A stretch of DNA of 63,996 nt, the filler included, from Sphacelaria rigidula (Eukaryota), in assembly GCA_964200075.2 (NCBI GenBank). It is 3 parts of 3 records of this genome, joined end to end, with 100 filler letters (N's around TTAATTAATTAA, not from the genome) between each part and the next. Parts side by side here need not be neighbours in the genome. Positions count along the whole stretch, not along the records: positions 1 to 21,474 come from CAXNAA020000419.1; 2 more parts are not named here. One strand, 5' to 3'. Below, piece after piece: positions 1 through 43,142 of this stretch; within the stretch, counting starts at the first letter, position 1, and every line of letters starts with the position of its first letter. The position numbers and the translations under genes were made by a program. Under the pieces are notes generated by a model. The model was not told the origin of the DNA and made no database searches. It was given only the letters and a program-made list of their open reading frames with translations.

Positions 1-10
1 CTCTTCCCCT

Positions 11-12
<2 letters not shown>

Positions 13-73
<61 letters not shown>
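13..73. repeat. (CA)n/(GT)n microsatellite
   Basis: About 30 perfect CA units; on the minus strand the run starts at the GT donor following the AAA exon 74-319. Confidence 0.95.
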
Positions 74-75
<2 letters not shown>

Positions 76-3000
76 TGTCCACCAGATCCGAACACCGAAC
101 TTGCAAAAAGTTGGCGAAGCCGCGAGTCTCCAAAGCGAGCGCACGGGCCACGCTTGTTTTGCCACAGCCCGGAGGGCCATGCAAAAGCGCACCACTTGCC
201 GCCCGCAGTCCCAACTTTCGAAGCAGCGAGGGGTTGGCGAGTGGTGCGAGCAGGAATGCACGCAACTCGGCCAATGCTGCGTCGCAGCCCACAAGCGGCG
301 TCGTTGTCGTCGATCCTCCCTGCACGAGACGCGCATGATGCGTAAACATCACGCGTGTGGGCTATGTGTGTGAAGAACCAGTACACGGGTTTCCCAACAG
401 GAGATTACTTTTGAAAGCAGATCAAGTGTTCCTAGGAGTAATTGCTGTGCATTTCTACGAGCAAACACGTGTACTCACGTAGGAAATACCGGTGTCAACA
501 TGTAACATTCGTCATGTCCACAGCTCCACGGACGTGCACCGCGCACAATCCAGCGCATCATAACACGCAGCGTGGCCCTGCACGCGGGCAGCAGTATCTA
601 AAACACTCGCACAGGTTTCTGTTGGAAGCAAAAACCATCAAAATATGGACCACGCGACAGCACAGATGTCTACCCCCACCAATCCCCGCCAATGCGCAGA
701 CACAGGCCACGAGTATGCCCCACGCACATCACTCATCAAAACTGCAACGCAACCCGGACCACATGAAGGATTCCGTACCTGTGGCCCGCCGCCGTCCCCG
801 CTCCACATTCCTGCCGAGCGGCCGACCAGAGAGGCTGGACGAACGACATCCAGAGCCGCCCAGAAGTCCTGCAACCTAACAGCGCTTGCCACACCATCCA
901 CCTCACCACTCTCGTCCATTCCAGCAGTGAATCGCGTCCGTCCCTTGTCTCGAGAGCCATCTTTAGGCGCTTCATCGGCAAGTTTCGCGCTATCTGTGCG
1001 CGTCTGTGCAACCCTCCTATAATCGGCGGCGCTCGCGGTGAGCGTGGCGACGGCGGCCGTGTCGGCGCTGGCAGCCGCCATGTGTCGCATGGCGGCCTCG
1101 CGGCACAGGCGCTGGAGGTCAGAACCTAAATAACCGTGACACCTCGCTGCGACAAGCGCGACAAACTCTTTTCTCGTCCTCGGCGGCGGCGATGGAAGCA
1201 CGCCTACTGCTGTCGCGACAATATGACTCGTCCACAACGACGTCGCACCCGGGGCTGGGGTCTGTCTGTCCCGAACGCTGTCCGCGTCGTCTTCCAATAA
1301 GGCACCGCACGACGGACGAATGCTGGAGCCATTTCTACCCCGCGCGTCTACCCCTCCAACGGTCGAACTTTGTGCTGCCGAGGAGGATGCAGAACAAGGA
1401 ACAAGGGTGATATCAGTGCCGGCGGTTTTCCCCCCCTCCGGTGGTACAGACGTCGGAGTGGCAGCTGCTTTTGGTGAAGGAGGGACTTGAAGCTGCAGCT
1501 GTAACGGCATGTTTCGGGAGTGAACCTCCAAGATTGACGCTCGAGATGAAGCGTCCAGATTTCCCAGCAGCAACACGGTTTCTAGACGGCCCCGTTGGAG
1601 AAGAGATGGATCTAGCGCAGCCGCATCTGGGCAGGTAGCTAGGAAGAACACGTGACGTTCGTCCGGAACAGGTTGCTGACGGAAGCGGTCCATCGTCTCG
1701 ACAAGGACCGAGAATACCTGTATCGATTTTAGTTTGTATTCGCCGCGCAATAGGTCGATTTTCACATTTTTCCCATCATCCTTCTAGCCCATCCACTTGC
1801 TTTTCTCGGGACATCTACATAGTAGTCTGTCTCAAGGAATCGACCCATCTATCTCCCCCTCGGTACAAGCCTGGCATTTTGGTATCGCGGATGGGGTCAT
1901 GACCAAACACTCCCACACCACGTCGACTCTCGTCAAGTTTTAATTCTTTCTTACGACCTCACATTTTCAAGAACGGAAACCAGAACCTCCACAGACAAAA
2001 AAAAGGGCAGTTTTCGGCATTCCTAACCGTAACCTTCTACCTTAACTGGCTATGTATGTACCACTTGGACCATCAGGGCACCGCATGAGCGTTGAACTTG
2101 GGGCTTTCGCGGTGTGTCTGTTTGGAAAAATTGATTTCATTTATTTTCGGCGAAAACGTATACACGCCGTGTATTCGATACACACATATCCTCCCTCATG
2201 CTTGTAGTACGAAGAACTACACTTTGATCCATGTTCCATCGTAGTCCGGCGTTCGGGAATCCTCGTCCCAAAGGATGTACGAGAGAGTCGCATGGCAAGA
2301 GAGGTGAGCGAAAGTAGGTATCTGTGTGTTTGTGTGCATCCTTCTCGAAGCGCCGAAGATTTTCGACGCATCTGTTTTCACCATTCGCGAGAGCATCGCT
2401 GAGACATGTGCAAAACAGACAACTTAGTCATAGAAAAGTGGTCCGAGTTTTTGATTGGCTATCTTACTCTTACAGAAGGCGAGAGACGGACACACGACAT
2501 CGCGAAACTGCCTACCGTAGACTGGTGCACGGAGAATATCACCCTCGGTGGTGAGCTTCTCAACCTTGATTTTCTCGTAGGTGCTGCGGTTACGACGCCC
2601 GAAAGTCGTGGTTTTGGAATAATCTCGTCGATATCTTTTGGCGAAAATTGTTATCTTGAAAGCAGTGCAGGGTCGGGCTTATGGCGATGACGTAGATTGT
2701 GTTTCTTACTGCTCGGATAATGGATAATACTCCGTATGCCACGCGTCAACGAAGGGACGAAGCCTGCATGCAAGTTGTTACTTGGAAGGTTAACTGCATA
2801 TTGTGCGCGACAGCAGTGAAATTCGCAGAATACTGAAGCCGCAGTCGAACAGACATGGAACATTTGCTTCTGGCGATCCTTCACTCATCGTGGTCAATAT
2901 CCGTACACCCGCTACCTGCAGCTCTGTGATTCCAGCGACCTCCGGGCGCCTTTTGCTGACAGACTCCACCTGATCTAGCACGACTATCGATGGCGAGCAA

Positions 3001-6000
3001 GCACGCGCCTCTTCTAACACGTCCTGCGGTCAAAATCCACACACGAAAAGATAGAGGACCCAAGAAATTGAGAAGCGAGAGAGTAACACGCATGCCGCTT
3101 TCCTGCCGAAGGTTTCCAGGAAAGGCGATTTTTTAAGGCGTGCCATGCAGTATATATCATTACATATGGAACGATAAAACCTAGTATAAGAGCAACTTCC
3201 TCGCAGACACATCGTCGATATATCCGGGACGTTAGCAAAAATGACATGTGGAAAGGAGTGGGGACTGCAACATGGCATATGGACGTGAGTTTGTTAGCAA
3301 TAGTGTATGCACGGCAATCGAGAAGGGTATGGGTCTGTCATTCTCCATAACGAACGTGTGCCAATCAACAACAGTTTTGAAGCAAGTCACAATCAATTCA
3401 TTCATTTCATGGAGAATGAAAAAAAAGCCTTGCATCCCGGACCCATGCGCAAGAAAATACACAGGTTCTCTACACCCCTTCGTCGAAAAGCTGCATCCTA
3501 CAAGTTCGGGAGGAGCGATTCCGCTGTGCAGCGAAGCTATGTGATCGGCTCACGCACCTGGACGTGTCGCTCCGCCTTGCCACGATCCCGCCTGAATACC
3601 GAAGAGCAATCCAGGAAAAACCACGGAACCCCGGAGTGCTGTGCAACGGCCCTGAGCAGGCACGAACACGCTTGGTACGTTTTACTCGTGCTCAACAGTT
3701 TAGGGCATGGAGAGTCGAGTTCCATGACGCTCCGCCGGTTTCGTATGTTAGGAGTGCACTTCTTGGTGCAAGACTACTGTACTGCGGGGCGTTTGAGTGA
3801 GTGGCACGTGCATCAATTTAGCCACCAGAACGCTGATACGTTCAGTGGCAAACGTGTGTGGCGTCAGTGCCGCTACCACGATTGAACGCTCGCCAAGTTT
3901 GCCTCTTGGGACGGTAAGAACACGTCTGTAGTGGTGCTAACGAGAAATCATATTTCCCCTTGTGCCTCCCTGTCTCTATTTCTCTCCCTGTCTCGTGGGG
4001 GACAAAAAAAAGAAAGCGAAAAGCCCAAGCACTACTTCTTCCTTGGTCCGATAGGGCACCGGTGATGATGCACCTTTCTGCTCTGAAGAAAACGCCCACC
4101 AAAACAATGAGCATCAAGACATGTCATTCATGGACCTGGCAAGAAGCGTCTTTCCAGCCCCTGTAGGCCCGTGCAATAGGAGACCGCTGGCGGGAGAGGT
4201 GAGCCACTTGTGGTCGCTGCGGCTGCCGTCCACAAGCGCCGCGCGGGCAGCGCCCACAGCAGCTTTTACGTCGTTGTCTCCTCCGCCGAAGTCCCGCTGC
4301 ACACGGCGAACCCATACGTCTTCGTCAAGCACCGAGTGAAAAGACTTCCGAGGGACACCTTTTGGTGTTTCGTGAGCACGCTGACGGTTTTCGTTCGCCG
4401 CGTCGTCTGGTGTGCACGGCGGTTTGTTGACAGGGAGATATTTTTTTAGCTTCTGCTAATGGCAAGGCTGTGCAGGGGGAGAGTGTCTTGCCTTGATCGA
4501 TCGCGTGTTTGAGTACATTACGAAGGCCACCGTTGAATATAGGCGTCACTAGGAAATATCAACACATGACGTGGCGAATCAATTACCCAGTTACATACAT
4601 GTGTTGTGACGGCGATAATACATAACTAGCGATACACGAAAGCTATCGTCTAATGAGAAATGCGAATGCTTCATGTTGGCGATTTTGTTTTGGTCGGTCA
4701 GTTAATACCTTTCCCATCCCAAATTTTTCAGATAAAAAAATGTACAGAAGTAGGGATCCGCATGATGCGTACGTGCGGTAGGGTGTACGACCATGCTTCG
4801 AATTATTTGTGAGAAAACAAATACAAATACTACCGATCCGTATCACGCATACAGTGCGGATCGCGAGTGCGCAGGGAATGAACAGTCGCAAACGATGCAC
4901 AGATTGCAGGAATAATCCTTCATCAAAAGGAGTGAGGACTCGTACATGATCGAATTAGTCGAACACAACTGCCCACCATGTTGATCTTGCCTGGGTTCAG
5001 GTATTCTGGTGCAGTAGCACATGTTGCATGGGCACTCGTTCCCGCTTGCACCCCTTGGAAGTTTTTCCCCCGTGGCGGTAGTGCCACCAAGCGCAGCTCG
5101 GTGGTATCTTGTATTCTAGCGGCCCCGGTCGTCGATAGCAACGGGACATGTGGCACCATCGTTTCCGCGCGTTCCTTCTGTCGTTCTTCTTGCTCCGTCG
5201 GTTGCGGCAACCCGTCCTGGTCCTTCCTCTCGCCCGTTGTCCAAACCGCCGTAACGACCACCGAAAATAGACCCGCAACGCGTAGCACTGACCCTTCAGC
5301 TACAACCTCCCCTTCCAACGCACAGGGGAGTATTGATGTCACAGCGGCGACCACGGACGCTGGAGGGCGTTCACTCGAGTCTGTATAATCGCCGCTTCTA
5401 TCCGCTTCCTGGGAGGATAAGTCGGCAAGCGGCAGGGGGTACGGGCCTTGTAGCTCGACCACAGTTGCTGGGCCATGGCATCGCAGGGCTCGCACACGCA
5501 GCTTCACTAAGGCACTAGGTGGTGTTTCAGGTGCGCTTGATAAACCCAGGGCTTCGGCAAGACAAGGGGAGATCAGAGCTTCACGACCAGGTGTATCAGT
5601 ATCGTTTATGATGCTGGCGTGGTTGTCGATTGAGCTGGATACCGCTGCTGGTGGTCGTCTCGCTCTCAGCGTCGGATGAGAGATGACCCGCACGTCCGAC
5701 GGCAGCCATTTTCTTTGGCAATCACAACTGCCATCACCGCCAGCAATACCACCGATCGTAGACTTTGGTGGGATTAAGGCTACCTCCGCTGCACCATGTG
5801 CCAGTAGACGAGAAGCACAACCAGCAGAGCCGTCGGCGGCAACTGCTGCGGCTGCAATTGGACAGTGATCTTTTGAGCCACCGTCATCGACATCAGGCGC
5901 TACCAGGATCCAAAGAACCGCACGGCAATGATCAGACAAAGCAGAGTCGTGAACGCTGTTGATTATTGACAACTTATTCGAATTGGATCCAACATCGTTC

Positions 6001-6050
6001 CAGACCTCGACGTACTCGGCCTCTCCGCTGTCGTAAGTGGTCGTATTCAT
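74..6050 (-). CDS. Type II (two-module) AAA+ ATPase, CDC48/AFG2(SPATA5)/PEX1-6-like; 3' end beyond window
   Basis: Phase-consistent exons about 6050-4991, 4406-4136, 3651-3558, 3023-2916, 1717-779, 319-74. D1 Walker A GLLLHGPTGAGKTLLAR, Walker B IVVLDQVE, SRH-like ALDPSLLQRGRL, lid CHGYLGSDLQRLCREAA; D2 Walker A GALLHGPPGCGKTSVARA. Start codon and first donor are uncertain. Confidence 0.88.
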
Positions 6051-6443
6051 CCATGGACTACGGACAGCAGCTGAAGGCAGCGGGTTTGGAGTAGATTTTC
6101 TTCTCAACTATACCTGTCTATCGCTCAGACCCGCAAAATCTCCAGAAGATTGCCTCGAGCACACATTCACACATTCACACATTACTCGAATATTTTGTAC
6201 TGTACTAGAGATAAACATCCCTATACGTGAAGCGAAATTAAGTCAGGAAGAGTTTTCCCTTCTCCCCTTCTCCCACCCCCCTGGTGAATAACAAGTTGTA
6301 AATTGTGTTCTACGTGGATGATGGTCAAGGCTTAGAAGAAAATTCAATGATGGCTGACAAATTTCCACCGCCGGGAAATAACCATCGTATCCAAACTACC
6401 TGCAGTGCCGAGCGTTGACGTCCGGCATGTCACTTGGCAAGGC
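6051..6443. promoter_or_regulatory. Putative bidirectional promoter / 5' UTRs between head-to-head genes
   Basis: About 390 bp separate the inferred ATG of the AAA gene (minus, 6050) from the ATG of the ankyrin gene (plus, 6444). No specific motif identified. Confidence 0.45.
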
Positions 6444-8584
6444 ATGGCAGCACTTGCAACTGCAATACTAAGGGGGGCGAGTTCAACTCAACACCTCGAT
6501 AACATACTGTCCCGCGGTATCGAAGTTGCCGATCTAAATTTTTGGGATCCACTTGGAAGGTCGTTGATCCACCTAGCAGCAGACTCCAATGATGTATCGG
6601 CGCTGCGTTGGCTCGTGCAGGAGCATGGGGCGAATCCAAGGACTGCAACAATCAACGAAGGTAGGTGTTCAGGACGCTCAATCGTTGATGAAGAAACTAA
6701 ATGCTGCATATGTTGACGAGTGAGCGTTGATTTATGCTATGGTGGCAACAGTGCATTACGGATGGCTTATATGACAGGACAGCATGTGTGAGGGACTGTA
6801 TTTCGAGAACGGTTCGCATCCCCCGGGTCTCGGGGTATACCACCCGGGGTGGTAAGATTTTCAAGCGCGATTTGCTCGTAAACTGCGCTGTGCAATCACC
6901 CCACCAAACATTGTCCGGTTGGAGAGATATTTTTAAAAAAAAAATGTCGGTGAACGGGACCTGTTGAAAAATGGGCGATTTGTTTTCTCTGATATAATCG
7001 AGGTTACTACTCGGCAACCCACGCGAATCTCATTGTGCAGTTTTCGTGTCCAGAAGCGCACGAACCCGTTCGCGGGGTGAAGTATTGGGTGAGGTTTTCC
7101 CCTTCCTTTAAGGACAAACAAAAAATCCCATGAAAACCTTCGCATAGATACAAGCCCATGCACAGTAGCAGGCATTACAGTGACTCAATTGTGTGTCGAT
7201 GAGTTCTCTGTTTATTTGCCCTTTGGAGTACACGATGCAACAGCCTTCTGGAGTAACTGACTCCGAGTTATAATAGGCTCAGAGCGCGATCCGAAGCACA
7301 TATTTGCACGGTATTTTGTGTACGATACAGTTGATATTTGTAGCTTTGAAAACATCGCACCTCGAGAAATACGTCTTGTTTGTGCGGTACAGGTCGTCAA
7401 ACGTCTGGTGTCCGACAACGGCACATGCGCTGTGTAGGTTCCGAACGCATCGACAAAATACAATGCACATGCGTTACACTTGCAAGATATGGATAGAATC
7501 TCAACGTTGGTGACACAGAAGAAACTCGTTGCTCAGGTACACTCAGGCCCGTCAACGTCTACTCTTCGCCCTGTTGCCGTTCTTCCTCGTGCACGTTCCA
7601 CATCCAGGCAACACGGCCCTGCACGTGGCAGCCTCCGAGGGTCACCTGGAAGCCGTTACGTACCTCCTGGAGGAGGCGTCTATGGGCGTGGCGGGCGTCA
7701 ACCATGCGGGGGAGACGGCCCTAGACATTGCGGTCAACAATGGCTATGACGCAATCGTGCGCCTGATGACCCGTCATCTGCGCAGCCCGCCTCCGCCACT
7801 GCCACCGTCGAAATCAAAAGCTGTCCCACCCAACGGTGAGACAACGCCACGGCCGCCGCCCAATGGTGCTGCTGCCGCTGCTGCTGCTGATGGTGGTGAT
7901 GGTGATGATAGTTTCAACACAGCTGCTGGTGTCGTTGGGGGTGATAGTCTCGATGTTGATGCTGCTTTCGTTGCAACTGCACCTGACGCGTGTGATCTCG
8001 CAGCACAAAATGCCGTAGCTCTAGTGGATGGAGACGGTACACTTCCCAGCAGTAGTGGTCAGTGTCCCCGAGAACCACCGCTTTCTCCGCCATCGTCAGG
8101 ACAGCACCACGCCCGAGAAGAGGGCGATGGCGATGGTGGGCAGGCAGAAGTTGTTCTCGACAAGAGCTCTGTGAGAGAGCATGGTGCAGTCATGAGAGGA
8201 GAAGGTGTTATTGCCGCCGCCGCTGCCGCCGGTACACCTACTGCTGCTTCCAAAAAGAAAAGTACCCACGCGGGTGGTCGCACACCGCCATTTGATGGGC
8301 GAGGGGTCACGCGCGGCGGATTTTTCGTTGCGGGGGCGTGGTCCAAGGCCGGGACCTGCTCGTGCTTCAACGTCCGGCACCGTCACTTGCTGGGCAAGCA
8401 CGGGGTGGTGTTCGACATGGGCTTGTGTCCACCCGAGATTATCAACGTTCAGCATGTGTTCGTGACACACGGACATCTTGACCACTGCGGGGCGATAGTG
8501 TCGCATGCCAGGCTTCGGAGCGTGCGCGGCTTGCCCCCGGGGAAGTACTACATGCACTCGGACTTGGCGGCTGGCATGGACAAG
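6444..8584 (+). CDS. Ankyrin-repeat protein fused to a tRNase Z-like (TM/plant TRZ1-type) metallo-beta-lactamase domain; 5' portion only
   Basis: Exon 6444-6660 (G|gtagg) joins exon 7608-8584 (ccag|GC ... AAG|gtgcg) in phase 1. Ankyrin repeats GRSLIHLAA, GNTALHVAASEGHLEAVTYLL, GETALDIA; then a low-complexity linker; then FDMGLCP...VFVTHGHLDHCGA (HxHxDH). Confidence 0.85.
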
Positions 8585-8767
8585 GTGCGCAGTTGGTTGT
8601 CTTCCGTTTATTTTTATTTTTTGCCTGCGCGGAGTGGGAAGAGGTGGGGTTGGTGCAGTATTTCCGTGTAGAAGCGAGTTTTAGATTCCTGGGACGCTTG
8701 GTTGCTGAAATAAATTATTTCCAGATGACAAGGCGTTTTGTTTGGGCTTGTCGTTGCTCTGTTTCAA

Positions 8768-10530
8768 CCCTTTTGGAACCCTTCCCTCCCGTCCCCGGGC
8801 CAGACGCCTCAATATGAGAAGCCCTGACAAAGAAGAAAATATGGAAACAGAAAAGACCGACGCGGCAACCATTTTTTCTGTTGAAGACCAAAGAAGACTC
8901 CAGACGCACACGTCATGGATGTGCCGAAAATGAAACCCTGGAGCGGTCGGGTTGGGTTTGTTCAATGATATCACGCGACAGGCGAAGTTTGTTCAATTGT
9001 GTGCATCGACAAAACTCTCGCAAAACAGTACAAACTCCCATATATGTGATTTTTGTTAGTAGAATCTGTGAAATACCTCAATTCGAGTTCGGTGCACGAA
9101 TACGTCACATTAGTATACTTGAAGTTGGAGTGGCGCACTAGTATACTTGAACTTAGAGTAGTGCACCGTTTTGGTGGGCTGAGTCATCAGGAGTTGGCGA
9201 GCGTAGGAAGCCACACTATACGGCCGGCGACAACGATATGGCGGCGCACGTGGAAATCCCGTCGCCACATGTGGAAGCGCTGAAGAGCGACCCATACGCA
9301 ATTCATGCTCGGCTGGAAGAGGTGGCTGAGAAGCACGGCCAGGACGCTGCCAGGCGTTTTGCTGAAAAAGCTGCAAGAGCGGTTGTGGCAGCCCATTGCC
9401 CCCCGGCGCACACCGCCCCCCCCGCTCGCTTACCAAACGTCCACACAGTAACCGCGGCAAGTGAGAACGCTGCGAGGCACGCAGGATTATGTAGGAGACA
9501 CCAGGCGGACGTGGCTGCAAGCGTCCAGACAGGCGATATACTAACAAACGGTCGCCAACCGACTGGGACAGCCTTTCGCAACCAGCCCAACCCTACTACA
9601 AATACAGTCAGTAAATACACTTCACTACAGTCCAGTATAACTGAATAACGATGTTACAGTCTTCCATGCCACAAGATAAAAAGTATGCAATATCATTGCA
9701 TGAAACCCCAACGCCGCCCACGAGGACAGACAGTCCAAACGCGATAGCGCCAGCCGGAATAATACACCTCACGCAGCACAAAGTACGGCTGTGCAACGTC
9801 CAGGAATGACCAACCCGCAGTGTAGAGGTAGTGTCGTGGAAGCGTACAGCACAAAGCGCAGCGTAAGATGTGCCGTAAGATCACAGCATACAAAGTGACA
9901 GTCTGTATCGGATATGCCAAAGTAACGGTCCCCGCCTGCGCTGCACCAGGAGTATGTATAACGGCGGGGTACATAACGTCCTCGTGGCCGTTATGGAATG
10001 ATCAAACCGCATTATGGTGTCGTATTAGCGCGTACGACAAAGTACAGTAGCGTGCATGACATGAGTTTACCCTGGACATGATGAGCTGAAAATATCATGA
10101 TCACACGCAGTACAGATAAATAGGTGAACACATCCCCACAGGGCCTGACCGTGACTGTCTGCGAATGCAGACAGCGGACATAAGTGAGGCAAATGTGCCG
10201 TCGGTGTCGCCTTTGTTATTGCAACTCAGCGCAGGTTTGCTATGATGCGGTGCAAAGCATCGACTGCGGGTGCGGCGTGGAGATTACTTCACGAAAGGTC
10301 AGCCGTGCACTCTGGCCGGGGATAGAAAATACGGACGGGTCGAACAATTTCTCATACCCGTAAAATAGAGAACCTTCGAACCTTCTTTTCTTTCACGTTC
10401 CATTCGCACGGGTCTGAAAAACACGCTTTTGGCGAATCGTTTGTTCAAAGGCTGTAGAAAAACAACCATTTCTTGCCCGAAAAAACGTTAAATGTAAATA
10501 GTCAATTTTCCATCAACGGTTCCAAAAGGG
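8768..10530. mobile_element. Non-autonomous piggyBac-like element (~1.76 kb)
   Basis: Perfect 13-bp TIR CCCTTTTGGAACC / GGTTCCAAAAGGG, flanked by TCAA (left, degenerate) and TTAA (right); both ends similar to the element at 20117-20583. Confidence 0.8.
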
Positions 10531-11351
10531 TTAAGAACGCATGAAATCGGCTTTTCAAAGAGTGTATTTTAATACCCTAGGCATTGCTTCACCTTACGCG
10601 GGTCTTCAGACTAACCCGCCATACTCGCAGCGACACCGTGTCGCCAAAAACGTTTGTTTTCTGCTTTTTTCCCACTTGTGACATTGAAAATATTACAAGG
10701 AAGCGCGCAACCATGTTTTTCTGTCAAAGTCGATGTCGGTGTTGAGGTATGTTTTTTTTTGTGCCGCCCTCCTTGAGCGTCCCCTGATATCCGTACCTAC
10801 CTCTACCCCAGCATGGCTTTGAATACGTGAAGAAATATTCGTAATCCATCTTGTGCGGAGAAATTGCACAAGGAAGAAAGCGTTTGAGCAAGTCGAGTTC
10901 TCCGCCACACTTCCATCTTTTCTCGAAATGCAAATGGGTGCTCCGCCGACAACAATCAGCCCGCGAACAAATGGCAACCCATCAGTTGCCATATGATGAG
11001 GATCACCGTTAGTGTTTTCTTTTTTCGTCGGTACACATATGCCGATTCAAAAAAATTCGCGGTCGTACCTTCTGCTCTTGGATATGGTCCACACAGCGAC
11101 GTGGCTTTTACCGGGAAACAGATCACGACATGGCATAATCTGGTCGAGTCGAACCCACCTTGATGACAGGCAAAAGCCACACGTGTCTGACAACACTTTT
11201 ACGTTACCTCTCTCGCATGCAACTCCCATCTGCCCATGGCCACCACCATCAATACCCAATACTCTTGCTGCATGCACACTACCCTATGGGATATGGCACA
11301 AACAGAATCGCCGTTTACATCAAAGTACGATCCATACAAAGAAATACACAC

Positions 11352-11529
11352 CTGTGGAGACAGAAAGCCGATCAAGTTATTCAGCAGGAAAATCCCAAGG
11401 CCGTACGTGACGATAAACCAGCCTTGCGTCACGTAGATCCTCAAGAGAAAAAGCACCACCGACACCAAGAAACCGATCCATCGCGACGTTGTGTAGATTA
11501 CTGATCGATCTAACCAGTACTGATATGTC
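11352..11529 (-). CDS. RER1: RER1 (ER retrieval receptor) internal exon; remaining exons not found, possible gene fragment
   Basis: TYQYWLDRSVIYTTSRWIGF...LRIYVTQGWFIVTYGLGIFLLNNLIGFLSPQ matches the Rer1 family; bounded by cacag| and |gtgtgt. Confidence 0.8.
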
Positions 11530-13142
11530 CTGTGAATGAGTGAACCAAAAAACAGCACGAGGAAGACGAAATATATGCGGAGCACGTTGGTTAGCGGGAG
11601 AAGCACGATGCGTGCTCAACACCCTCGATTTGGTGTCCAAAAACCTTCATCAGGAATTGCGGGTGGGGTGATCAATAGATGTGGGAAGAAACGATTGGCT
11701 AGGTCGGCATGCGTGTCACTTCGGCGCCGTGGAAGACGAGAACGTCTTGCCTTGGTACACCCACCGTCGTTGTATTTCTTCATTTGATATCCGCTGGGTA
11801 CACGGTCAGCCATGCTAATGGCATTATTCGATCGAAGTCTGAGGGCTGACCTGCATACTGCGATACTTATTTAAATCGCCTGAAATCGATCACGGTTAAT
11901 TTCGGTTCAGAACTATCGTGTTGCAACGAAAGAGCAGATTTACAGTTGTTGCAACTACAGGTGGATTCTGAGCACCCATGTAGAAAGTTGGTGCACGGAA
12001 ACGCTTCACCGGCTTTTATCCATCTTTGTGGGGTACTTGGTCTTATGCCTTGCAAGTGATGCACGCTGGCAGCCTCGACTACTACGAAATACGGGGCAGT
12101 GTAATGCTGGCACGCCTGAAATATTTAAATCTTACACGCATGTCAGTGTTCGCAATGCGCTTTGCGAACAAAATGCAGCATTTTCCTGTGGTCTTCCGTT
12201 GTGTTGGAAGCGCCCCGGGTGTCCTCTTTGTATACGTTACTTCCATACCATACGATACTCGCGAACATTTTGCATTACTGTAAACATGAAAATTACTCTC
12301 GCTGCACACGCTCATTTTAGATCCGTGTGAAAAACGGATATGGATATGGGTGCTAGCTCTGCAATTGCTTTCACAGATTGCAGATACAGATGGTCTGCGG
12401 CTATTGCGAACGTATTCTAACCGGTTAATAACGTATGATAAAGTGGTTTTAAACTAGCAGATGTCTGTAATCGTCGGGAAAGCTACTCTACACTGGTGGA
12501 TATCTGCCCACGTTCCACTGTGAATACATATTTCATGTTTCGTTCTGTGGTAGGTGTGAACCAAGTCGGCGATGTCGAGCGATTTGTGGCGTAAAATAAA
12601 ATGACCCGACCAATCAAAACCATCAAGATGGTGACCCCACTCCTTTCAGGCCTTCTGCTCGACCTAAAATTTCCCCCGCAATACGCATGGTCAACATGGG
12701 GAGCTTTCTCCAATGATCTGGGAAGCTTTTCCCGATGATTTGATAAGGTTGAAGCTCCCTCGCCCCTTGATAGGTTAAGGGGTAGGTACAAAGTGAGAAA
12801 AGAGACCACATATTCGTGGGGGACGGGGATCAAAGTAATGGGAAAACTTGTGCGAGAGGCTGCCTGCCCCCTTCCCCTCCCCCCCTGAAAGGTTGAGCCC
12901 AAGGAGACCCGTGGACTGTCCCCCGGTGATACTGTTCCGAGACGGAGCTGGCGATTGAAGGGTTGTGGACACGAAATTTCAAGGAAAGGAGCGAATCGAC
13001 CATTCGAAGGCTGTTGCTACCGGTTTCGTTCAATTTGGGAGATGACGGCGCATCATAAGTTCGGAAATTCATTCAAATGGATTTGGTTCTAAAAATGTCC
13101 TGAACAAAAAACGTGTTTTAGCAGCCAGCGACTGGTCGATTC

Positions 13143-14319
13143 CAAGGGTAGGTCGAGTAGAGTATACTCAATACTCAGTATTTTTGAAGAGTCATACTTT
13201 TAGTACTCAAAGTTTGAGTAGATATTTGAGATCATACTCAGTCTACTCGAAATTTGAGTAGAGTATTGAGGTCATACTCAAGTGGTACTCTATACTCAAG
13301 TATTACTGAGAGTGCTTACTCAAAAATTGAATAAAGTATTTGAGGTCCTACTCGATCTACTCAAAATTTGAGTAGAGTATTGGAGGCCGTACTCCACGTA
13401 CTCAAAATTTGAGTAGAGTATTCGAGACCATACTCAACCTACTCGAAATTTGAGTAGAGTATTGAGGTTATACTCAAGTGATATTACTCGATCTACTCAA
13501 AGTTTGAGTGGAGTATTGGAGGCCGTACTCAACGTACTCAAATTTGAGTACAGTATTTGAGGCCGGATCCGATGTACCGAAAACCTATAACTTCAACTTC
13601 AATATTCAACTTCGTACGCAAGGTACTCAAACTCGGGTAGAGGAAATACCGAGGTATTCCTAGAGTTTCCCACCCATGATCAACTCTATGTGGCCAGTAG
13701 AGTCGCTCATTTTCATAATACCTACTCGACTACTCGTCTACTCGATAACTCGATGATGATGAGTAGCGCTCTGTACTGAAAATGATATCGAGGGCGTCGC
13801 GAGGTATCGAGTATGAACTGCCGTGGTGTGGTAGGTGAGACGCGGGGGCAGGTAGGTTCGTTCACACGCCTTTTTAATTTTTTCATGGCCATCGTTCGCC
13901 CATGCATTCAGCATAGTCTGTGAAGTGACGTCACGAAGTCGCCGACTATCAGGGGTACTCACCATACCCAAGGGGTACTCTATACTCAGGTATTACTGAG
14001 AGTGCGAGTATTTGAGTAGAATTTTTGAGGTCGTACTCGATCTACTCAAAATTTGAGTCGAGTGTTTGAGACCATACTCAACCTACTCAAAATTTGAGTA
14101 GAGTATTTGAGGGCGTACTCGACGTACTCAAAATTTGAGTGTAGTATTGAGGTCATACTCAAGTGATATTCTATACTCGAGTATCACTGAGAGTGCTTAC
14201 TCAATATTCGCGTGGAATATTTAAAACCATACTCGACCTACTCAAACGTCGAGAAGAGTAAATACTTGAGTAAAATACTCAAGTACTCAAAAGTACATAC
14301 TCTACTCGACCTACCCTTG
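13143..14319. mobile_element. hAT-like non-autonomous element with palindromic subterminal repeats
   Basis: Perfect 23-bp TIR CAAGGGTAGGTCGAGTAGAGTAT; perfect 8-bp TSD GTCGATTC (13135-13142 and 14320-14327); many TACTCAAAATTTGAGTA-type units. Confidence 0.9.
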
Positions 14320-14694
14320 GTCGATTCGCTCATCTCAAACTTTCAGATCCCAACTATCGAACCTAAAGTGAATACTCGCCGTAGACACCCTTTGGTCCCT
14401 TTCGCTGGGACGGACCTCAGGCACCCTTCCCTGTGATCATATGGCCTAATATTGGTCGTGAGGTAGATAGACCACGAGTAATCTAGGTGGAGGTGACTCT
14501 GCCTAGTGAACGTTCATACGCCGCTTTACCCTAGTCACAGACGAACGGTCATCCTTCTGAACAGACATCTCTCCTCAACCCTCTGACCGCGAACTCCCCG
14601 CAAATGAACTCAGATGGACTATGCCACATTTGGGGTTCACAACAGCTGTTTTTTCAAGAGATTTTTTTTTTCACGAAGATGTGGGTGTTGGTCA

Positions 14695-14717
14695 TATATA
14701 TATATATATATATATAT
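14695..14717. repeat. (TA)n microsatellite
   Basis: Short TA run seen directly. Confidence 0.8.
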
Positions 14718-15584
14718 TATAAAATAGTGCCAGAGAGCCCGTGACCGGTTTTGAGCCACAAGTAAAGAGCATGCAGAGTCAACATGTATGTCTCCGCTGA
14801 GCACTTTTCAGTTATTGTCGGGTACATGCTTTTATTGTTAGCAAATGGCGCACGCAAGCAGCGGCCACTGCTGCGATATACGCAAACATCACACATCCTC
14901 TCTCATCTCTGCTTTCGCAGCTGTCTGGTATTTTCGATGCAGGGCTGGCACAGGCACATGCACAGGCACATCTCGAGCGTGTTTTGATCTTGCACGCATG
15001 CCTCATCATCTCAACTCTACCCCTTTTTACTGTGTGTACTGCTGCTGCTACTCTACCGTGCATACATTCGAAATATTTTCATCAGTGGCTCGCAATCAAA
15101 GGGTCAACACATCAACTAAACGTCCTCTGGTCAGCCGATGCTCGTGGCATGGTATCCCTTTCCCTCCATGAACCAAAAACACAGACTCCGCTGTACTGTG
15201 GGTACCTCGCGTTCACGGCGAGGTGGAGGCATTTGCGCTGAGATCAGTCCCCTATCCAGGCACAGCTTTACAGAGGCTAAAGATGAGTCCCTCAAGCGAC
15301 ACACATGTAGATCGTAATCGGCGCCGTGAGCTATGTTTTCTAGGGATAGGTGCTGGATCAGCACATCCTGGCATAGTCCTGTGCCAAAAAAATCGAGACA
15401 AAATATACCTGGATGCCCGCAGTGTAAAACAGAAGCTTTGCTAGTGAATTTTCCGACCGTGGGTGGAGGCACCTCCGTGAAACTTGGTGCACTAGTCTGA
15501 CACAACACAGACAGCATGTGCATCAGTCGGCCGCATGTTCGGGCGTGCAGACATCTCAAACAAAGCGATTATTTGGGCAAGGGG

Positions 15585-17703: not shown

Positions 17704-20116
17704 GAAGAGGGGTCAGATTTTGTTCCGACTATTTTTTGGCGTAGGACTAGGCAGTCCTTTTCGCAGTGCCACTGCACCAGTTTCAGGAACAAACAGGATA
17801 ACGCCTTCTTGTTGATGGAAACCCATCTATTGCGCCGCAAGTTAAGCCGAAACGATGTTTTCGCGTTACTCTGCCGGGGTCACTTCGGCGGGCGTCGCCG
17901 CGCACCCAAGATACTGGCAGGATCCAGTACTGGCAAGCTGCACCAGTACCCAGCCCTAGAGTTTACTTTCACCATATCTGTGCTGGGCGTGCGTGAACTC
18001 AACGCCGAGCTCGATATTGGTGAACAGGGGAACGGATGCGTCTGCTTGGAGTGTCGACTACAGCCCAGCTTTCTCCTCCTCAAAAGCCAAGTCGACAATT
18101 GCGCGAACAGCACAGCTTGAGTATATTCTAGCACTATGTCATGGACGCGAATAATCCTAAGTCAACAACACGATATGGGCGGAGATTCCGCAGACAACGG
18201 TGAACGGTGCGATCTGTGCTACCGCTGTGCGAAAAGAATGGAAATCACGCAAGTACTGTCACATCACGAGTATACCTCCAAGTATATTATCTGCGAGAGT
18301 ACTGCCAACAATGCACTTACAAAGAAACGAAACGACAAATTCAAGAGTGTAAAAGGTAGAGGTATCTTAACCTCGCTGAAGCCAGACATGCAGCTTCCGT
18401 ATTCTTTCTAAACTTGCACGCTGTACATTATCTATCCGTGTAAAGGGATAGACCCTGCACTCTCTGCACCTCCAACACGCGAACGTATCTGCAGAGAACA
18501 AATCTCTCCGGCGGAGCCAGCACCACCGCAAGCAAGAACAGAACGACGAAAAAAACACCTTGATCCACACACTCACCGTCGTACTTTCGCCATGAACACC
18601 TCCAGTTTACTGCTCCCAGGGTCCTCCATAGCTAGCACTAGTCTCTGTGCTGTACGGTGCCTTGCGCCTACCTGCTTGCGCTTGACTGCAATTCCACCCT
18701 CGAGCGGGTTATGTCGTGCTCTGCAGGACACCCTAAATAAAGTCATTACCCATTTTGGATGCGATATAACACCTGCAGTCCCCTGTCGACATGTCCCAGT
18801 GTAGACTGCGCACAATGAACAGTACAGTATAATACAGCACCGTGAAGCGCAACACAGCACAGTGCAGCACAGTAGTAAGGAGACAAAGCGAGACGTTCTG
18901 GAGTCTGTGTCTGCGCTCGGGTTGCCTTCTACTTGGGTGTCTGGTGTCTATCGGTGTACTGTTGTGCACACTGTGATCCATCTGTCCGCGTGCACGAAGT
19001 ACCGCTGCTTCTCACAGCATAGATCGTGCCTTCAGTAGGGAATGCCCACACGCGTTGCTGGAGTTGTAGCGATCGGTTTATCCACTGCTCTCTGTGGTCG
19101 AAGACGAGTAGGCGTTCGATCCTCCCTGGCACCCTCCTTGCACAACTACGCTCCGCCCAACATGGTGAGTCAAGCCAGTGATTTGTCCTGTGTCCACTCT
19201 TCACGACAACATGACCATACGAGTAGCATACCTGCAGCATGTCATTCGACTACGAGTACGCCGATCCACGTACAGGGACAGAGTGGTCGCTGTTCTGTCT
19301 CTAGCTGGCTATAGGAATGGATGGGTCTATGTCATGATCGAATACTCCCAGCAGAGTCAGCGTAGAAGTACGAAATAGCTGCATTCATCGCTGAGTGAAA
19401 GTAAATTCAATCTTTCTGTAGACGTAACTTTCGGTGACGGGAGATAACACCCCCTCCATTCTTGCTTTCTCCTCCCATACAGTTGTATTCGTACCGCGGT
19501 AAATGACCCCAGGGACCAATTAGAAAACAAGTTATTATGGCATGCTACACAGGGCATTTGATAGATAATCGGTGCTATGCCTGTTGCAAGCACCCCCTAC
19601 ACCATGGCTTGCTCTTCGGACACCCTTGTATTGGTACCGTGGTGAATGCATTCAGAAAACTAGCACAAAACATACAGTAGTTTTACTGAAACGCAACAGT
19701 ACACGGTCTATCCACACAGAATGCTTGGGACAAAAAATCTGTGTTTTACCTGTTACATCGGAAGTTGGCGGGAAATGCATTGTCGAGGTATTGGCAGGGA
19801 GTATTATCGTCCGTTATCGACACCAGAAGCTACCTTGCGACGTATAATATGCCATGTTTTCACAAATAAAAAATAGTGCCGTCTGAGGTCAACTCTAACG
19901 GGCGCCGTTCAAAATTTTATTAAAAGAAAATCATCGCCGTTTTTTGCCTGCCGCGATTCTGAACGGGGATGAATAAAGACACTTTTATTCAATCGCTTTC
20001 GAATTTTGTCCTATGCACTCCCGCCCCCAACCCAGCTTAGGGGGGGGTAGGGAAAACCTCATAAATCATCCGTTCCACAGCAGCGTGACTCCTCACGTAT
20101 CCGACCGTCGGCTTAA

Positions 20117-20583
20117 CGCTTTGGGAACCCTCCCCGTTCGTCCCCGGATCAGACCCCTCAGTTTTTCAAGCCCTGACGACGAAGGAAAGATGGAAACAGA
20201 AAAAACCGACGGTAGCCATTTTCAGGGCGGAAGGCAACGGAAGAATCCACCAGCATACGTCACGCACGCACCATAAATGTCACCCCGTGCGGTCGGATTG
20301 GTTTTGTCCAGTGAGGGACGCAACGGGTCAAGTTTGGTCAAGTTTGTGCTCACAGCCAAAATCAGCACTTACGTGCCTGAACTCTACACAAACAAAAATC
20401 GGCACCACCTGTCTATTTTCTTTATACCGCGTCCCGTGCGTCACTGGCGCACATTTCAATACGGGTCTGGAAAACACGCCTTGGGCTAATAGTTTCGCGT
20501 GAAAGCTATATATACTTGGCCATATGTCGTGCAGAAAACAGCACTTCGAAATCCACACTTTTCCATTGCCAGTACCAAAAGGG
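20117..20583. mobile_element. piggyBac-like MITE (467 bp), same family as 8768-10530
   Basis: TTAA|CGCTTTGGGAACC ... GTACCAAAAGGG|TTAA; shares AGCCCTGAC..GAAG..AA.ATGGAAACAGAAAA.ACCGAC and ACGGGTCTG.AAAACACGC blocks with the larger copy. Confidence 0.8.
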
Positions 20584-21474: not shown

Positions 21475-21574
21475 NNNNNNNNNNNNNNNNNNNNNNNNNN
21501 NNNNNNNNNNNNNNNNNNTTAATTAATTAANNNNNNNNNNNNNNNNNNNNNNNNNNNNNNNNNNNNNNNNNNNN
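21475..21574. other. Assembly gap with artificial linker
   Basis: 44 N + TTAATTAATTAA (stops in six frames) + 44 N. Confidence 0.95.
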
Positions 21575-23443: not shown

Positions 23444-26400
23444 ATGAGCGGTACAGGAGAAGAGCGGAGTGTGGTGGACGAGCTGGAGGCTCCACCTCAG
23501 GCGTTGGTCGTAACACCAGAGGACTACCACAGCTTTCGAGAATGGAAAGCGTATCGAGCTAGGGGGTTTTCTACAGCTGGGGGCACAGAACCGCCCCAGC
23601 TGGAAGTCCAGGAAAGAGCAGCCCCGAGAGAGTTTAGAGCTGACACAACACTCACCGGGTCGGCCGGTCTGGGATTGGGTCGACTAGGGGCGGGGGCGGG
23701 AGCACCGCCCAGGGGCCCAACAGGTACGCATGCCCCTGACACATCGTTAGGAATGATGTTTGGTCTTTGGTTTCCCAGTACAGGGGATATAACAAGGTTT
23801 TCGTGAGATTGAGAGTAGAGGATACAATTGAGAGTGAAAAGCGGTCAATTCGTGACTGACCCGTTTCAGTTCCGAAATGCCCCTCCACGAGATCCAATAC
23901 CTTTTCTGTAGTAGCTTGCCGCTGAGACCCTTGATATCCCTGAGAAAGATATCGACGTGTAGCTGTAAGCACACGCCAGTGGTGGAGGGGAAAAAAACAC
24001 ACACACACGGAATGAAAAAGTGGCGAAGTCGAAGCAAATGAAAGAAGCCACTCTCAATCAGCGCTCTACTCTCAATCTCACAAAAACATTGTTGTATGCG
24101 GATGTCAAGAGCCGTTTGCAAAACCGAGGAAGTACACAATCAGCGTCGTTACTGATGAGTGTGGATTCTAGGACATTGAAAGCAAAGGATGTCACAAAGT
24201 TTACAAGTAAAACAAGTCATAGATGGACGACTTTTAAGCGTGGTGTAGAGCGATATGCGTTCATCTGGGGTTTCGGGGATGGCTTGTTTCGCGACTCACC
24301 GCTTTGTGTTGATCCTCTACATGAACCGCAGCTGTTAGGGTTGGGTGTCAGTGAGGATGATATCAAGCGAGCTCGCTTTGCGTATATATTGCTTCTGAAT
24401 ACTGTCAAGGATCCAGTCGCGAGGCATATCCTTGTGGATTCGCGATCACCGTCCATAGCATGGCGTGCATTGGACGAAGAGTTCTCTCCCAAAACCGCGG
24501 GAGCTAGAATGGACGTCTTAGACGAGTTGAACAATCTGAAGTACACAAAAGGGCAGGATACAGATGAGTTCTGGATCCAACTACAGCCAGTGCACTCATG
24601 TTCTGTAACGTTGGGATTGAAGATTCTCCTTAATATGATCGTGGATAAATTCCTAAATTCCCTCCTCGCTGAGTACACCACGATTCGAGACCAGTTGCGT
24701 TTCGAACCATCACTGTTGACTGACAAGACCCAAGCCCTTGTAAAGGATAAATTTCTGTATCTGAAGAAAACCGGTTCTTCCCGTGGTAGTTATCACAACC
24801 GTGCCTTGTATGCAGGCAGTAAGGGTTCCGGCTACAGGAGTAAGAAAAAAGGGGGCGGAAAGTCGCGAAAATCCGCGGCTGGATCAAGGGATGGGAATGC
24901 ACAATCAGATGGAAAAGCAGGGGGTGACGGTAGTTCTGCGGGTAAGAAGAAAGCCGTAGATAAGAAAAACCTCACCTGTTACGAGTGTGGCAAAACTGGC
25001 CATTTCAAGTTTGAGTGCCCAGAACGTGTTTGCGAGGTGTGCGGAGGGAAAGGACATTCAAAAGAGCTCCACAAAATGGTCGCAATGTGCACGTCTGACT
25101 CTTTTAAGGACTCAGTAGACTTTGGTTTCATAGCAGTCGGGACTGACGACTACGCGTCTGCAGCAGATGGTACACGAGGGGACTGCCCAGTTCTTGACGA
25201 CGGGGGGAAGGAGGTCTGGATCGCAGACAGTGCTGCAACATGTCATATGACCCCTTCGCGTGACTGCATGTATGACTATGAGCCTTGCTCTGGTCGTTCG
25301 GTAACGGTGGCTAACAGTCAAAAGGCGCCGATTTTGGGCTGTGGAAAAATCTTGTTGTCGACAGGTAGTGGCGAAGACAAGTTAACAGTCAGTATCAAGC
25401 GCGTGGTACACGTGCCTGATTTGGATGTAAACCTTTTCTCCCTGCAAAGTGTAGTGGTTAAGCATGGTTCGCCGATTAGTCTGACGAGAGAGTAGGGGGT
25501 GACACTGGTGGGCAAGTTCCACGAATGCAAAGGCTGCTCAATGGCGAAGGGGTTGCGGAAACCCATCCCTACGTCCACCACTATGCGTGCAGCTAAGCCT
25601 TTTGAGCGTGTGTTCATGGATGCGTCTGGCCCGAAATTGGTCGAGAGTGCAGGTGGAATGAAGTACTCTTTTCTTATCCGCGATGATTTCACTCGGAAAA
25701 TCTGGATGTATTTCGGGAAACATAAGTCTGGCACCACGAGGGCGTTTAAGAAATACCTGGCTGATGTAGGAGCACAGTGCATTCCCTCAGCTGTAGAGAC
25801 CGTAAGATCTGACGGTGGTGGAGAGTTCTCAGGTTCTGTCAGTGATCTGTGTCGTGAGCGTGGCATAAGGCAAGAATACACCCCAGCAGACAGTCCCGAG
25901 TACAATGGTGTTGCCGAACGGGCAATCGCGATGGTTGAGAAAGCCGCTATGACAGCTAGGATTCAGGCAAAGGTACTGTATGGCGTGGATGTTCCGGCAA
26001 GGATGTGGGCTGAGTCGTACCGTTGGGCAGCAGATGCGTTGAAACGTTTTGCTACCACTGCTAACCCTGGGAAGAAGTCCCCAGATGAGGTGTTTTACGG
26101 TGAAGTACCTGAAGTCAAGCTTCTCCCTTTCTTTAAGCCAGGATACTGAAGGTATGAGAGGACGTCGAAGTGTATGTCGAAAGTACAGGAGTGTTTTTAC
26201 TCAGGGCCTGGCTACAACTACCGCCGTGATACCATGAGAATGCAGACGAAAGGCAGATATGCAATCACTACTCGCGATGTTACTTGGCAGCGCTCATCTC
26301 CCCCAAAATCGCAGCAAGCGGTTCCGTTTTCTGTGTCGGGAGAGGAAAACTCACAGGATGTGGAGAGCGGGGAGGACGGTGTCGAGAGCTCCGATTCTGA

Positions 26401-43042: not shown

Positions 43043-43142
43043 NNNNNNNNNNNNNNNNNNNNNNNNNNNNNNNNNNNNNNNNNNNNTTAATTAATTAANN
43101 NNNNNNNNNNNNNNNNNNNNNNNNNNNNNNNNNNNNNNNNNN
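43043..43142. other. Assembly gap with artificial linker
   Basis: 44 N + TTAATTAATTAA + 44 N, identical to the first gap. Confidence 0.95.

Follow-up and report, generated by a model that had tools for sequence, protein, structure and literature searches.

Short tRNase Z enzymes have long been regarded as plain, stand-alone tRNA trimmers. Work on RNase ZS1 (TMS5) and ELAC1 recasts them as tRNA repair enzymes linked to ribosome rescue, heat sensitivity, and fertility. Both enzymes are reported to remove the 2′,3′-cyclic phosphate from Vms1/ANKZF1-cleaved tRNAs in ribosome rescue (PMC11897441), and RNase ZS1 is reported to cut pre-tRNA trailers and UbL40 mRNAs (PMC13276404). The Thermotoga maritima (TM) type of these enzymes is defined by a short arm with a KL motif (KLKxxYxxLxGxxIxxLK), by the lack of both a GP motif and a PxKxRN motif, and by xExT and HxH elements in place of HEAT and HST; a Gly-rich stretch, with the plant consensus EGxSxxG, replaces PxKxRN before Motif I (Fan et al. 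2011, PMC3161902). Here we analyze a gene of the brown alga Sphacelaria rigidula (assembly GCA_964200075.2) that joins ankyrin repeats to a domain of this type. It lies on the plus strand of a stretch of 63,996 bases (the window), in which its coding part occupies positions 6444–8584.

The window holds the 5′ part of an expressed brown-alga gene. The product that we consider the probable one, with moderate confidence, is a protein of about 600–630 residues composed of a cap with three ankyrin repeats, a linker, and a complete TM-type short tRNase Z, which would act in tRNA 3′-end processing or repair in the cytosol or the nucleus, with the ankyrin module as an adaptor. The features of the gene are the following:

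6402–6443, plus strand: 5′ untranslated leader; spliced contigs start at 6402 (X6) and 6427 (X7), and the ATG is at 6444.
6444–6660, plus strand: exon 1, with the start codon, the N-terminal capping helices, and ankyrin repeat 1 (translation, Pfam, tblastn).
6661–7607, plus strand: intron 1, 947 nucleotides, GT..AG, with the donor GT at 6661 and the acceptor AG at 7606–7607; contig joint 6658 to 7606 (cut +2).
7608–7780, plus strand: first part of exon 2, ankyrin repeats 2 and 3 (Pfam, identity to the ortholog P0001).
7781–8290, plus strand: middle of exon 2, 170-residue low-complexity linker containing short trinucleotide arrays (composition, repeat arrays).
8291–8584, plus strand: last part of exon 2, N-terminal third of the tRNase Z domain, with AGAWSKAG and Motifs I and II (tblastn, alignment A1).
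8585–8765, plus strand: start of intron 2, unique sequence with the donor GT at 8585; RNA-like contigs exit the window sequence at 8586, and a DNA contig of X1 continues to 8795.

Exons 1 and 2 (6444–6660 and 7608–8584) join in frame to give 398 residues with no stop. The contigs that bear on the splicing come from runs X6–X9 of one study, for which the RNA nature is a guess ("RNA?") and none is recorded as RNA; X6 and X7 were compared with the DNA-like X1 and X4. One contig each from X6 (2092 nucleotides) and X7 (2172 nucleotides) covers the region from 6402 or 6427, respectively, to 6658 and then 7606–8586, with no other letters. The 947-nucleotide GT..AG skip that joins these pieces is absent from X1 and X4, which cover the intron. 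Since the contigs of X6 and X7 show both the joint and a gapless 7606–8586, intron 1 is spliced, and ankyrin repeats 2 and 3, the linker, and the start of the nuclease domain stand on one unbroken contig piece. The coordinates in the preliminary description thus agree with translation, splice sites, and spliced contigs, and the fusion does lie within the single exon 7608–8584, as it had maintained, without any guess about splicing. A read-through or an annotation fusion is rejected, both modules being on one exon and one RNA-like contig. Beyond 8586, the same spliced contigs extend for another 854 (X6) and 959 (X7) nucleotides, and these extra letters occur nowhere in 5800–13800. The two contig letters that follow the end of exon 2 (8586) fit a next exon beginning with GT, i.e., with the Val codon of the orthologs.

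The N-terminal module consists of a cap and three ankyrin repeats. In Pfam, exon 1 matches Ank_3 (5.6e-06, 26.7 bits with a cut-off of 22.3, residues 38–66) and Ank (23.1 bits, cut-off 21.1), while exon 2 matches Ank_2 (1.9e-09, 38.4 bits, cut-off 27.3) and Ank (5.4e-08, 33.1 bits, cut-off 21.1); the Scytosiphon ortholog P0001 reaches 99.2 bits for Ank_2. The translated exon 1 is 68% identical to P0001 (tblastn, E 6e-25), and repeats 2 and 3 of exon 2 are 69% identical to its residues 141–198. Between orders, the ankyrin part of exon 1 retains 60–68% identity (tblastn). In the AlphaFold2 model of the Ectocarpus ortholog P0007, the ankyrin module spans residues 1–135, with block-mean predicted local distance difference test (pLDDT) values of 88–96, and is matched by Foldseek to INK4 proteins and DARPins. 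The very N-terminus of the model folds into the first helices of this module (H3–9 and H15–23, pLDDT 88–92), and it is conserved from the first Met among the orthologs. According to the model, the N-terminus is therefore a folded ankyrin cap and not a signal or transit peptide.

The two modules are separated by a disordered linker of 100–170 residues. In Sphacelaria rigidula, it comprises 170 residues between RHL and FDGRG, somewhat fewer than the approximately 190 estimated before, and includes 31 Ala, 22 Pro, and 22 Gly, being also rich in Ser and Asp. The equivalent residues of the P0007 model (144–270) are unstructured, with pLDDT below 50, and the linker cannot be aligned across species. 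The conservation of the ankyrin module, set against the unalignable linker, argues for the module having a function. The linker is encoded in part by arrays of TGC (7.7 copies, 7867–7889) and GCC (6.3 copies, 8213–8231). Trinucleotide and 9-nucleotide arrays occupy 7861–7913, where reads of X4 are skipped and its contigs break at 7860/7914, so the length of the linker may differ between individuals.

The last 98 residues of exon 2 form the beginning of a metallo-β-lactamase (MBL) domain, with Motif I (FDMG) at 8411–8422 and Motif II (HGHLDH) at 8468–8485. The Asp of Motif I and the HxHxDH of Motif II are both invariant in alignment A1, in which the window row keeps every column that is invariant among the 12 rows. 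By itself, this segment is weak (Lactamase_B 4.5e-04, below the Pfam cut-off), because only the N-terminal third of the domain is in the window; against the orthologs, it gives E 1e-50 to 1e-52 and 69–74% identity across 106–119 residues (tblastn). The preliminary description was right about the start of the MBL domain with its two motifs, and it overlooked that the remainder of the domain is absent from the window. Since only Motifs I and II are present, the protein cannot be judged as an enzyme from the locus alone, and its assignment is made through the orthologs.

At this level, the evidence converges on tRNase Z. When solved structures are searched with the Pylaiella ortholog, just two reach E <= 0.01, namely, rice RNase ZS1 (7xgt, 5.5e-26) and the T. 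maritima tRNase Z (1ww1, 1.3e-10). A profile built from 90 relatives ranks 7xgt first (1.6e-92), followed by 1ww1 (5.3e-37), B. subtilis RNase Z (1y44, 2.6e-22), and ELAC1 (1.8e-18), with E. coli RNase Z, yeast Trz1, and ELAC2 below these; the top nine are all RNase Z/ELAC1/ELAC2 chains. The first match of another kind is an arylsulfatase at only 2.1e-08, which places tRNase Z enzymes, and not other MBL families, closest among the solved structures. In the P0007 model, residues 271–570 constitute the nuclease domain, with block-mean pLDDT of 84–98 and mostly above 90, falling to 74 in residues 571–580 and lower beyond, and Foldseek places 7xgt first (TMt 0.86–0.87) and the T. maritima structure 2e7y next (0.68–0.69). 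The MBL-related NCBIfam matches of P0009 and P0007 are all ribonuclease Z models, with the exception of a weak RNase J match (E 0.0011), and the prokaryotic ribonuclease Z equivalog models rank first among them.

The catalytic residues are also in place in the gene family. Over the 90 relatives (alignment A2), the catalytic columns, with the zinc ligands and the Glu–His pair among them, are near-invariant, in P0007 numbering D314, H332, H334, D336, H337, H411, D465, E486, H502, H504, and H525, and they are kept in the orthologs. The His of Motif III, the Asp of Motif IV, and the His of Motif V (H411, D465, and H525), none of which is in the window, are among these columns, and YTGDT and HVSxRH occur in 6/6 full-length brown-alga orthologs. 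As for the subtype, the same six orthologs all contain the xExT (MEVTY) and HxH (FHIH) elements, likewise outside the window. PxKxRN is absent from both the window and the six orthologs, its place being taken by AGAWSKAG, which is one residue longer than EGxSxxG, and the GP motif (GxPxGP) occurs in 0/6. A flexible arm (exosite) that binds tRNA distinguishes tRNase Z from other MBL enzymes; a relaxed KL-like pattern, with Gly rather than Lys as the first residue, lies in an insert between Motifs III and IV, outside the window, in five of the six. The nuclease of the gene family is thus supported by its sequence motifs and modeled fold as a TM-type short tRNase Z, the window itself showing only Motifs I and II and the absence of PxKxRN. 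The TM-type tRNase Z-like nuclease named in the preliminary description is in this way supported for the gene family by structure matches, profile, fold, and ortholog motifs.

Proteins with the same architecture are found across the brown algae. A search with the domain start returned 27 proteins, 17 of them with Ank families; the nine of the 27 that are named at NCBI are all from brown algae (Scytosiphon, four Ectocarpus, Hapterophycus, Laminaria, Pylaiella, and Choristocarpus). Searching with the Scytosiphon nuclease region gave 13 proteins, 11 with Ank families, including those of the early-branching Discosporangium and Choristocarpus. Several ortholog models end at the exon borders of the window or one exon further, which fits long introns and short contigs. 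These orthologs are already in public proteomes, as unnamed products. No description of an ankyrin–tRNase Z fusion was found in the literature, in keeping with the earlier remark that no characterized protein is known to have this architecture; the supplementary tables on composite genes of the Phaeoexplorer preprint may list it. That preprint states that fusions and fissions affect about 7% of brown-alga genes, and its main text does not mention RNase Z, tRNase, or lactamase.

A HMMER search of 1.84 billion representatives with the Pylaiella protein yielded 1380 matches at E <= 0.001. Among the matches listed, the nearest outside the brown algae are from Phaeothamnion, Chattonella, Nannochloropsis, and Mallomonas, with 37–44% identity in the nuclease (E 1e-47 to 3e-68). 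Pfam was run on 41 of the 150 listed matches, namely, 38 of the 41 rows from outside the brown algae with at least 340 residues (P0072, P0098, and P0165, of 340–349 residues, were left out) and three shorter ones, and ankyrin repeats were found in 0/41. Two of the scanned relatives, P0070 and P0133, carry a C-terminal CCCH zinc finger, another accessory module on a normally stand-alone TM-type enzyme. The Phaeothamnion protein was also searched for relatives of greater length, and none was found, which is weak evidence. Metagenome contigs scanned with P0009 gave 174 pattern matches and no relative, and a 36-base stretch of intron 2 gave 0 matches.

A FastTree phylogeny was computed for 89 rows, P0008 being excluded because of its shortness. 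The 10 brown-alga rows group in a single clade (SH-like 99), in which Choristocarpus and Discosporangium lie outside the other members and which adjoins Phaeothamnion and Nannochloropsis. This single clade with its early-branching members implies that the fusion is as old as the sampled brown algae and vertically inherited. The fusion would date from the base of the brown algae or earlier, its source being a stand-alone enzyme of the kind present in other ochrophytes. In the ESM Atlas, there are also bacterial clusters, with Candidatus Aminicenantota as the commonest phylum, that combine Ank and Lactamase_B in 416–572 residues (score 0.92, with only 95–99 shared features). These possibly represent an analogous layout and are not taken as kin.

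On the basis of the above, the C-terminal module would be a two-zinc phosphodiesterase acting on tRNA 3′ ends. It would trim the 3′ trailers of pre-tRNAs, or take the 2′,3′-cyclic phosphate or leftover nucleotides off tRNAs lacking CCA, in the manner of RNase ZS1/TMS5 and ELAC1. The enzyme is probably dimeric, as the solved short forms are, and its KL-type arm, which is short and basic, would hold the tRNA. No catalytic role is expected for the ankyrin module, which is carried on a flexible linker and most likely interacts with a protein partner by which the enzyme is positioned or regulated. As a folded ankyrin cap stands at the N-terminus in place of a presequence, the predicted compartment is the cytosol or the nucleus.

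A number of points weigh against this reading. The complete enzyme in Sphacelaria rigidula is deduced from the length of two contigs of one study, the RNA nature of which is a guess. The multiple sequence alignment used for the fold is shallow over the ankyrin part, with only 9 ankyrin-bearing brown-alga rows of the 90 in A2. Two related sequences, P0002 and P0012, which are 74% identical to each other, have no repeats while keeping the first approximately 10 residues and the linker. Their sequences indicate that the ankyrin module has been lost in one sublineage, which argues that the module is accessory, and as it is missing there, it is unnecessary for the core job in every brown alga. One full-length ortholog, P0005, misses the KL-like pattern by one residue. 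P0009 stays far below the NCBIfam ribonuclease Z equivalog cut-offs (TIGR02651, 58.9 bits vs 292.95; TIGR02650, 41.8 vs 507.05); the NCBIfam models are prokaryotic, and the miss thus speaks against a bacterial equivalog and not against membership in the tRNase Z family. Finally, the activity, substrate, partner, and location of the fused group are predictions.

The domain residues that should follow exon 2 (about the last 215–232, with Motifs III–V and the tRNA-binding arm) were not found on either strand of the 63,996 bases by tblastn with five orthologs under default and very loose settings. The best match covers 26 residues at 35% identity on the minus strand (52850–52927, E 0.03–0.1) and is taken as chance. 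Two features downstream of the gene are relevant here:

8766–10534, no strand assigned: high-copy repeat where the 3′ exons of both flanking genes are expected (word depth, loose ends, contig stops).
11202–11615, minus strand: exon of a convergent Rer1 gene, limited to the N-terminal region of the family (Pfam Rer1 3.9e-21, profile positions 6–73 of 167).

The repeat starts about 180 nucleotides past the donor and has a summed word depth of 1e4–9e4, compared to about 27 in its flanks. Many loose ends are located at 8766 (before it) and at 10534 (behind it), and the DNA contigs of X1 and X4 halt at 8793–8795 and resume at 10508. The frames of the repeat have no Pfam match, and a partial copy of it, 73% identical, is present at 20115–20349. 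On the other side, RNA-like contigs cover 11352–11530 of Rer1 and continue past 11352 into sequence that has no match in the window, even with up to 3 mismatches allowed. The rest of Rer1 was not found in the 62 scanned minus-strand frames (those up to 13072) of the 76 that have at least 22 residues in 8099–13992. Two convergent genes are thus both cut short of their 3′ parts at a single repeat, and the transcripts of both extend further, which points to a collapse of repeat copies or a misjoin in the assembly. We consider such an assembly error at 8766–10534 the most likely explanation, and the gene does not look dead. The 854–959 extra nucleotides of the spliced contigs are sufficient for the missing 215–232 or so residues and a 3′ untranslated region.

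The alternative is a real truncation of the copy in the window, in which both 3′ parts were lost through deletion or rearrangement from intron 2 to an intron of Rer1 and the repeat was left in their place; the gene would then be a dead or hemizygous remnant, and the full transcripts would come from another allele or from another individual. This would account for the last 215 or so residues being untraceable on both strands of the window and for Rer1 being limited to profile positions 6–73, with the letters of its next exon likewise absent. It would also agree with the presence of both junctions between unique sequence and repeat (8766 and ~10508–10534) in DNA contigs of two studies. Short-read contigs, however, cannot tell one repeat copy from two, so that a collapse explains the same data. 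Furthermore, the spliced contigs that match exons 1 and 2 with no other letters run on for 854–959 nucleotides, so the species has an intact gene that contains these exons, and the simultaneous loss of Rer1, a conserved housekeeping gene with a single exon set, is unlikely to be tolerated unless heterozygous. We therefore judge a true truncation unlikely, although not to be dismissed lightly.

Accepting the complete enzyme, one may ask whether tRNAs are its main substrates. It has to be considered that mRNAs or other non-coding RNAs have this role and that the ankyrin module brings the nuclease to a particular ribonucleoprotein. RNase ZS1 is reported to cleave UbL40 mRNAs and to affect R-loops (PMC13276404), cytoplasmic non-coding RNAs are reported substrates of ELAC1 (bioRxiv 10.64898/2026.10.07.757187), and the CCCH finger of the two scanned relatives is an RNA-binding module. 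The KL-like motif of the presumed tRNA-binding arm, however, is kept in 5/6 full-length orthologs, which points to tRNA-shaped substrates, and we find this option distinctly unlikely.

An organellar enzyme is harder still to reconcile with the data. In that case, the protein would process tRNA 3′ ends in the plastid (or the mitochondrion), as Arabidopsis TRZ2 does, and its N-terminal part would serve for import. TM-type short forms have been proposed to suit chloroplast pre-tRNAs (PMC3161902), and the Nannochloropsis relative has ~70 extra N-terminal residues. Against this stands the N-terminus, which is no signal or transit peptide and is conserved from the first Met as folded ankyrin helices. 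Ankyrin repeats that are stably folded would, moreover, be poor substrates for import, and we regard such a location as very improbable.

The least probable is the proposal, built on the sensor and defence idea of the preliminary description, that the ankyrin part perceives a signal or pathogen molecule and activates the RNase, which would then be regulated or serve in defence much as RNase L does. The layout is formally similar, with ankyrin repeats N-terminal to an RNase in one chain and a linker that would let them reach the active site, but nothing found here supports it. The module has a cap and just three repeats, and no kinase-like or KEN domain is detected by Pfam. Its sequence shows good conservation (60–68% identity in exon 1 across orders) and is not fast-evolving. 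The brown-alga rows group in a single clade whose branching fits the vertical descent of an enzyme gene, and the module is lost in one sublineage that retains the enzyme.

Returning to the preferred tRNA 3′-end enzyme with an ankyrin adaptor, its significance lies in the positioning of the enzyme. Retained since the early brown-alga branches, the presumed protein-binding module offers a natural experiment on the placement or control of the enzyme, and the TM type, once thought to be perhaps plant-specific, is extended to ochrophyte algae. A more specific idea, to which we attach little probability, is that the ankyrin weld at the origin of the brown algae physically tethers tRNA 3′-end repair to a protein machine, such as the stalled-ribosome rescue apparatus, whose Vms1/ANKZF1-type cleavage leaves the cyclic-phosphate tRNA ends that enzymes of this kind remove in rice and humans. 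If true, two steps that plants and animals keep apart and link by diffusion would be coupled in a single recruited enzyme, and the ankyrin partner would become a handle on the organization of tRNA recycling in a lineage far from both.

Regarding the surroundings of the gene, the minus strand at 1–6107 carries a gene with two AAA ATPase domains (AAA at 2–361, AAA+ lid at 641–1783), whose large N-terminal exon (4926–6107) contains no Pfam family. It is divergent from the ankyrin–tRNase Z gene; RNA-like contigs reach 6073, which leaves ~330 nucleotides between the transcript starts. A tandem array at 13223–14260 has nine copies of a 61-nucleotide unit, 61–93% alike, with a spacing of 41 nucleotides and very high depth in all four runs. 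The stretches 23969–28306 and 38993–39937 (both plus strand) carry Copia-type long terminal repeat retrotransposon frames (gag, zinc knuckle, Pol beta-barrel, integrase, and RVT_2), which are broken by stops and a 9-N gap (27150–27158), together with an RVT_1 reverse transcriptase frame that is separate from these. Paired 44-N gaps are located at 21475–21574 and 43043–43142. There are no tRNA genes in the whole window and no Rfam families in 5000–15000. For annotation, convergent genes that lose their 3′ ends at one high-copy repeat probably mark an assembly collapse, at which gene predictors would yield truncated proteins.

It is instructive to compare the brown-alga protein with the known systems, starting with the most distant. 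RNase L combines nine ankyrin repeats, a pseudokinase, and a KEN RNase on one polypeptide. The likeness is one of layout only, as the nuclease fold is unrelated and the brown-alga protein has three repeats; no pseudokinase or KEN domain was found by Pfam in P0001 and P0005, which contain only Ank and Lactamase_B/Lactamase_B_2, with Ank_KRIT1 below the threshold. Human ELAC1 (3zwf) belongs to the same family, as seen from the profile, and is a short cytosolic form that has a reported repair role in common with TMS5 (PMC11897441), but its arm and motifs are of the bacterial/eukaryotic type and not of the TM type, and it has no ankyrin module. In animals, ankyrin repeats are instead part of ANKZF1, the separate nuclease that acts upstream.

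The founder of the TM type, the T. maritima tRNase Z (1ww1, 2e7y), is the second-best match (TMt 0.68–0.74), while being bacterial, stand-alone, and 280 residues long; the Thermotoga-type NCBIfam model is the one that gives 41.8 bits with a cut-off of 507.05. The stand-alone TM-type enzymes of other ochrophytes (Chattonella P0032, Nannochloropsis P0033, Mallomonas P0045, and Phaeothamnion P0029) are the nearest nuclease relatives and the sister groups in the tree, and differ in having no ankyrin repeats in Pfam, P0029 being a partial model in which the N-terminus is not covered. Rice RNase ZS1 (TMS5, 7xgt), of the cytosolic plant TRZ1 type, is a stand-alone protein of 302 residues, to which the brown-alga protein adds ~270 residues at the N-terminus, and the identity in the structural alignment is only 25–26%. 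It is nevertheless the best match by sequence, profile, and fold, and it has the TM-type marks in common with the brown-alga orthologs.

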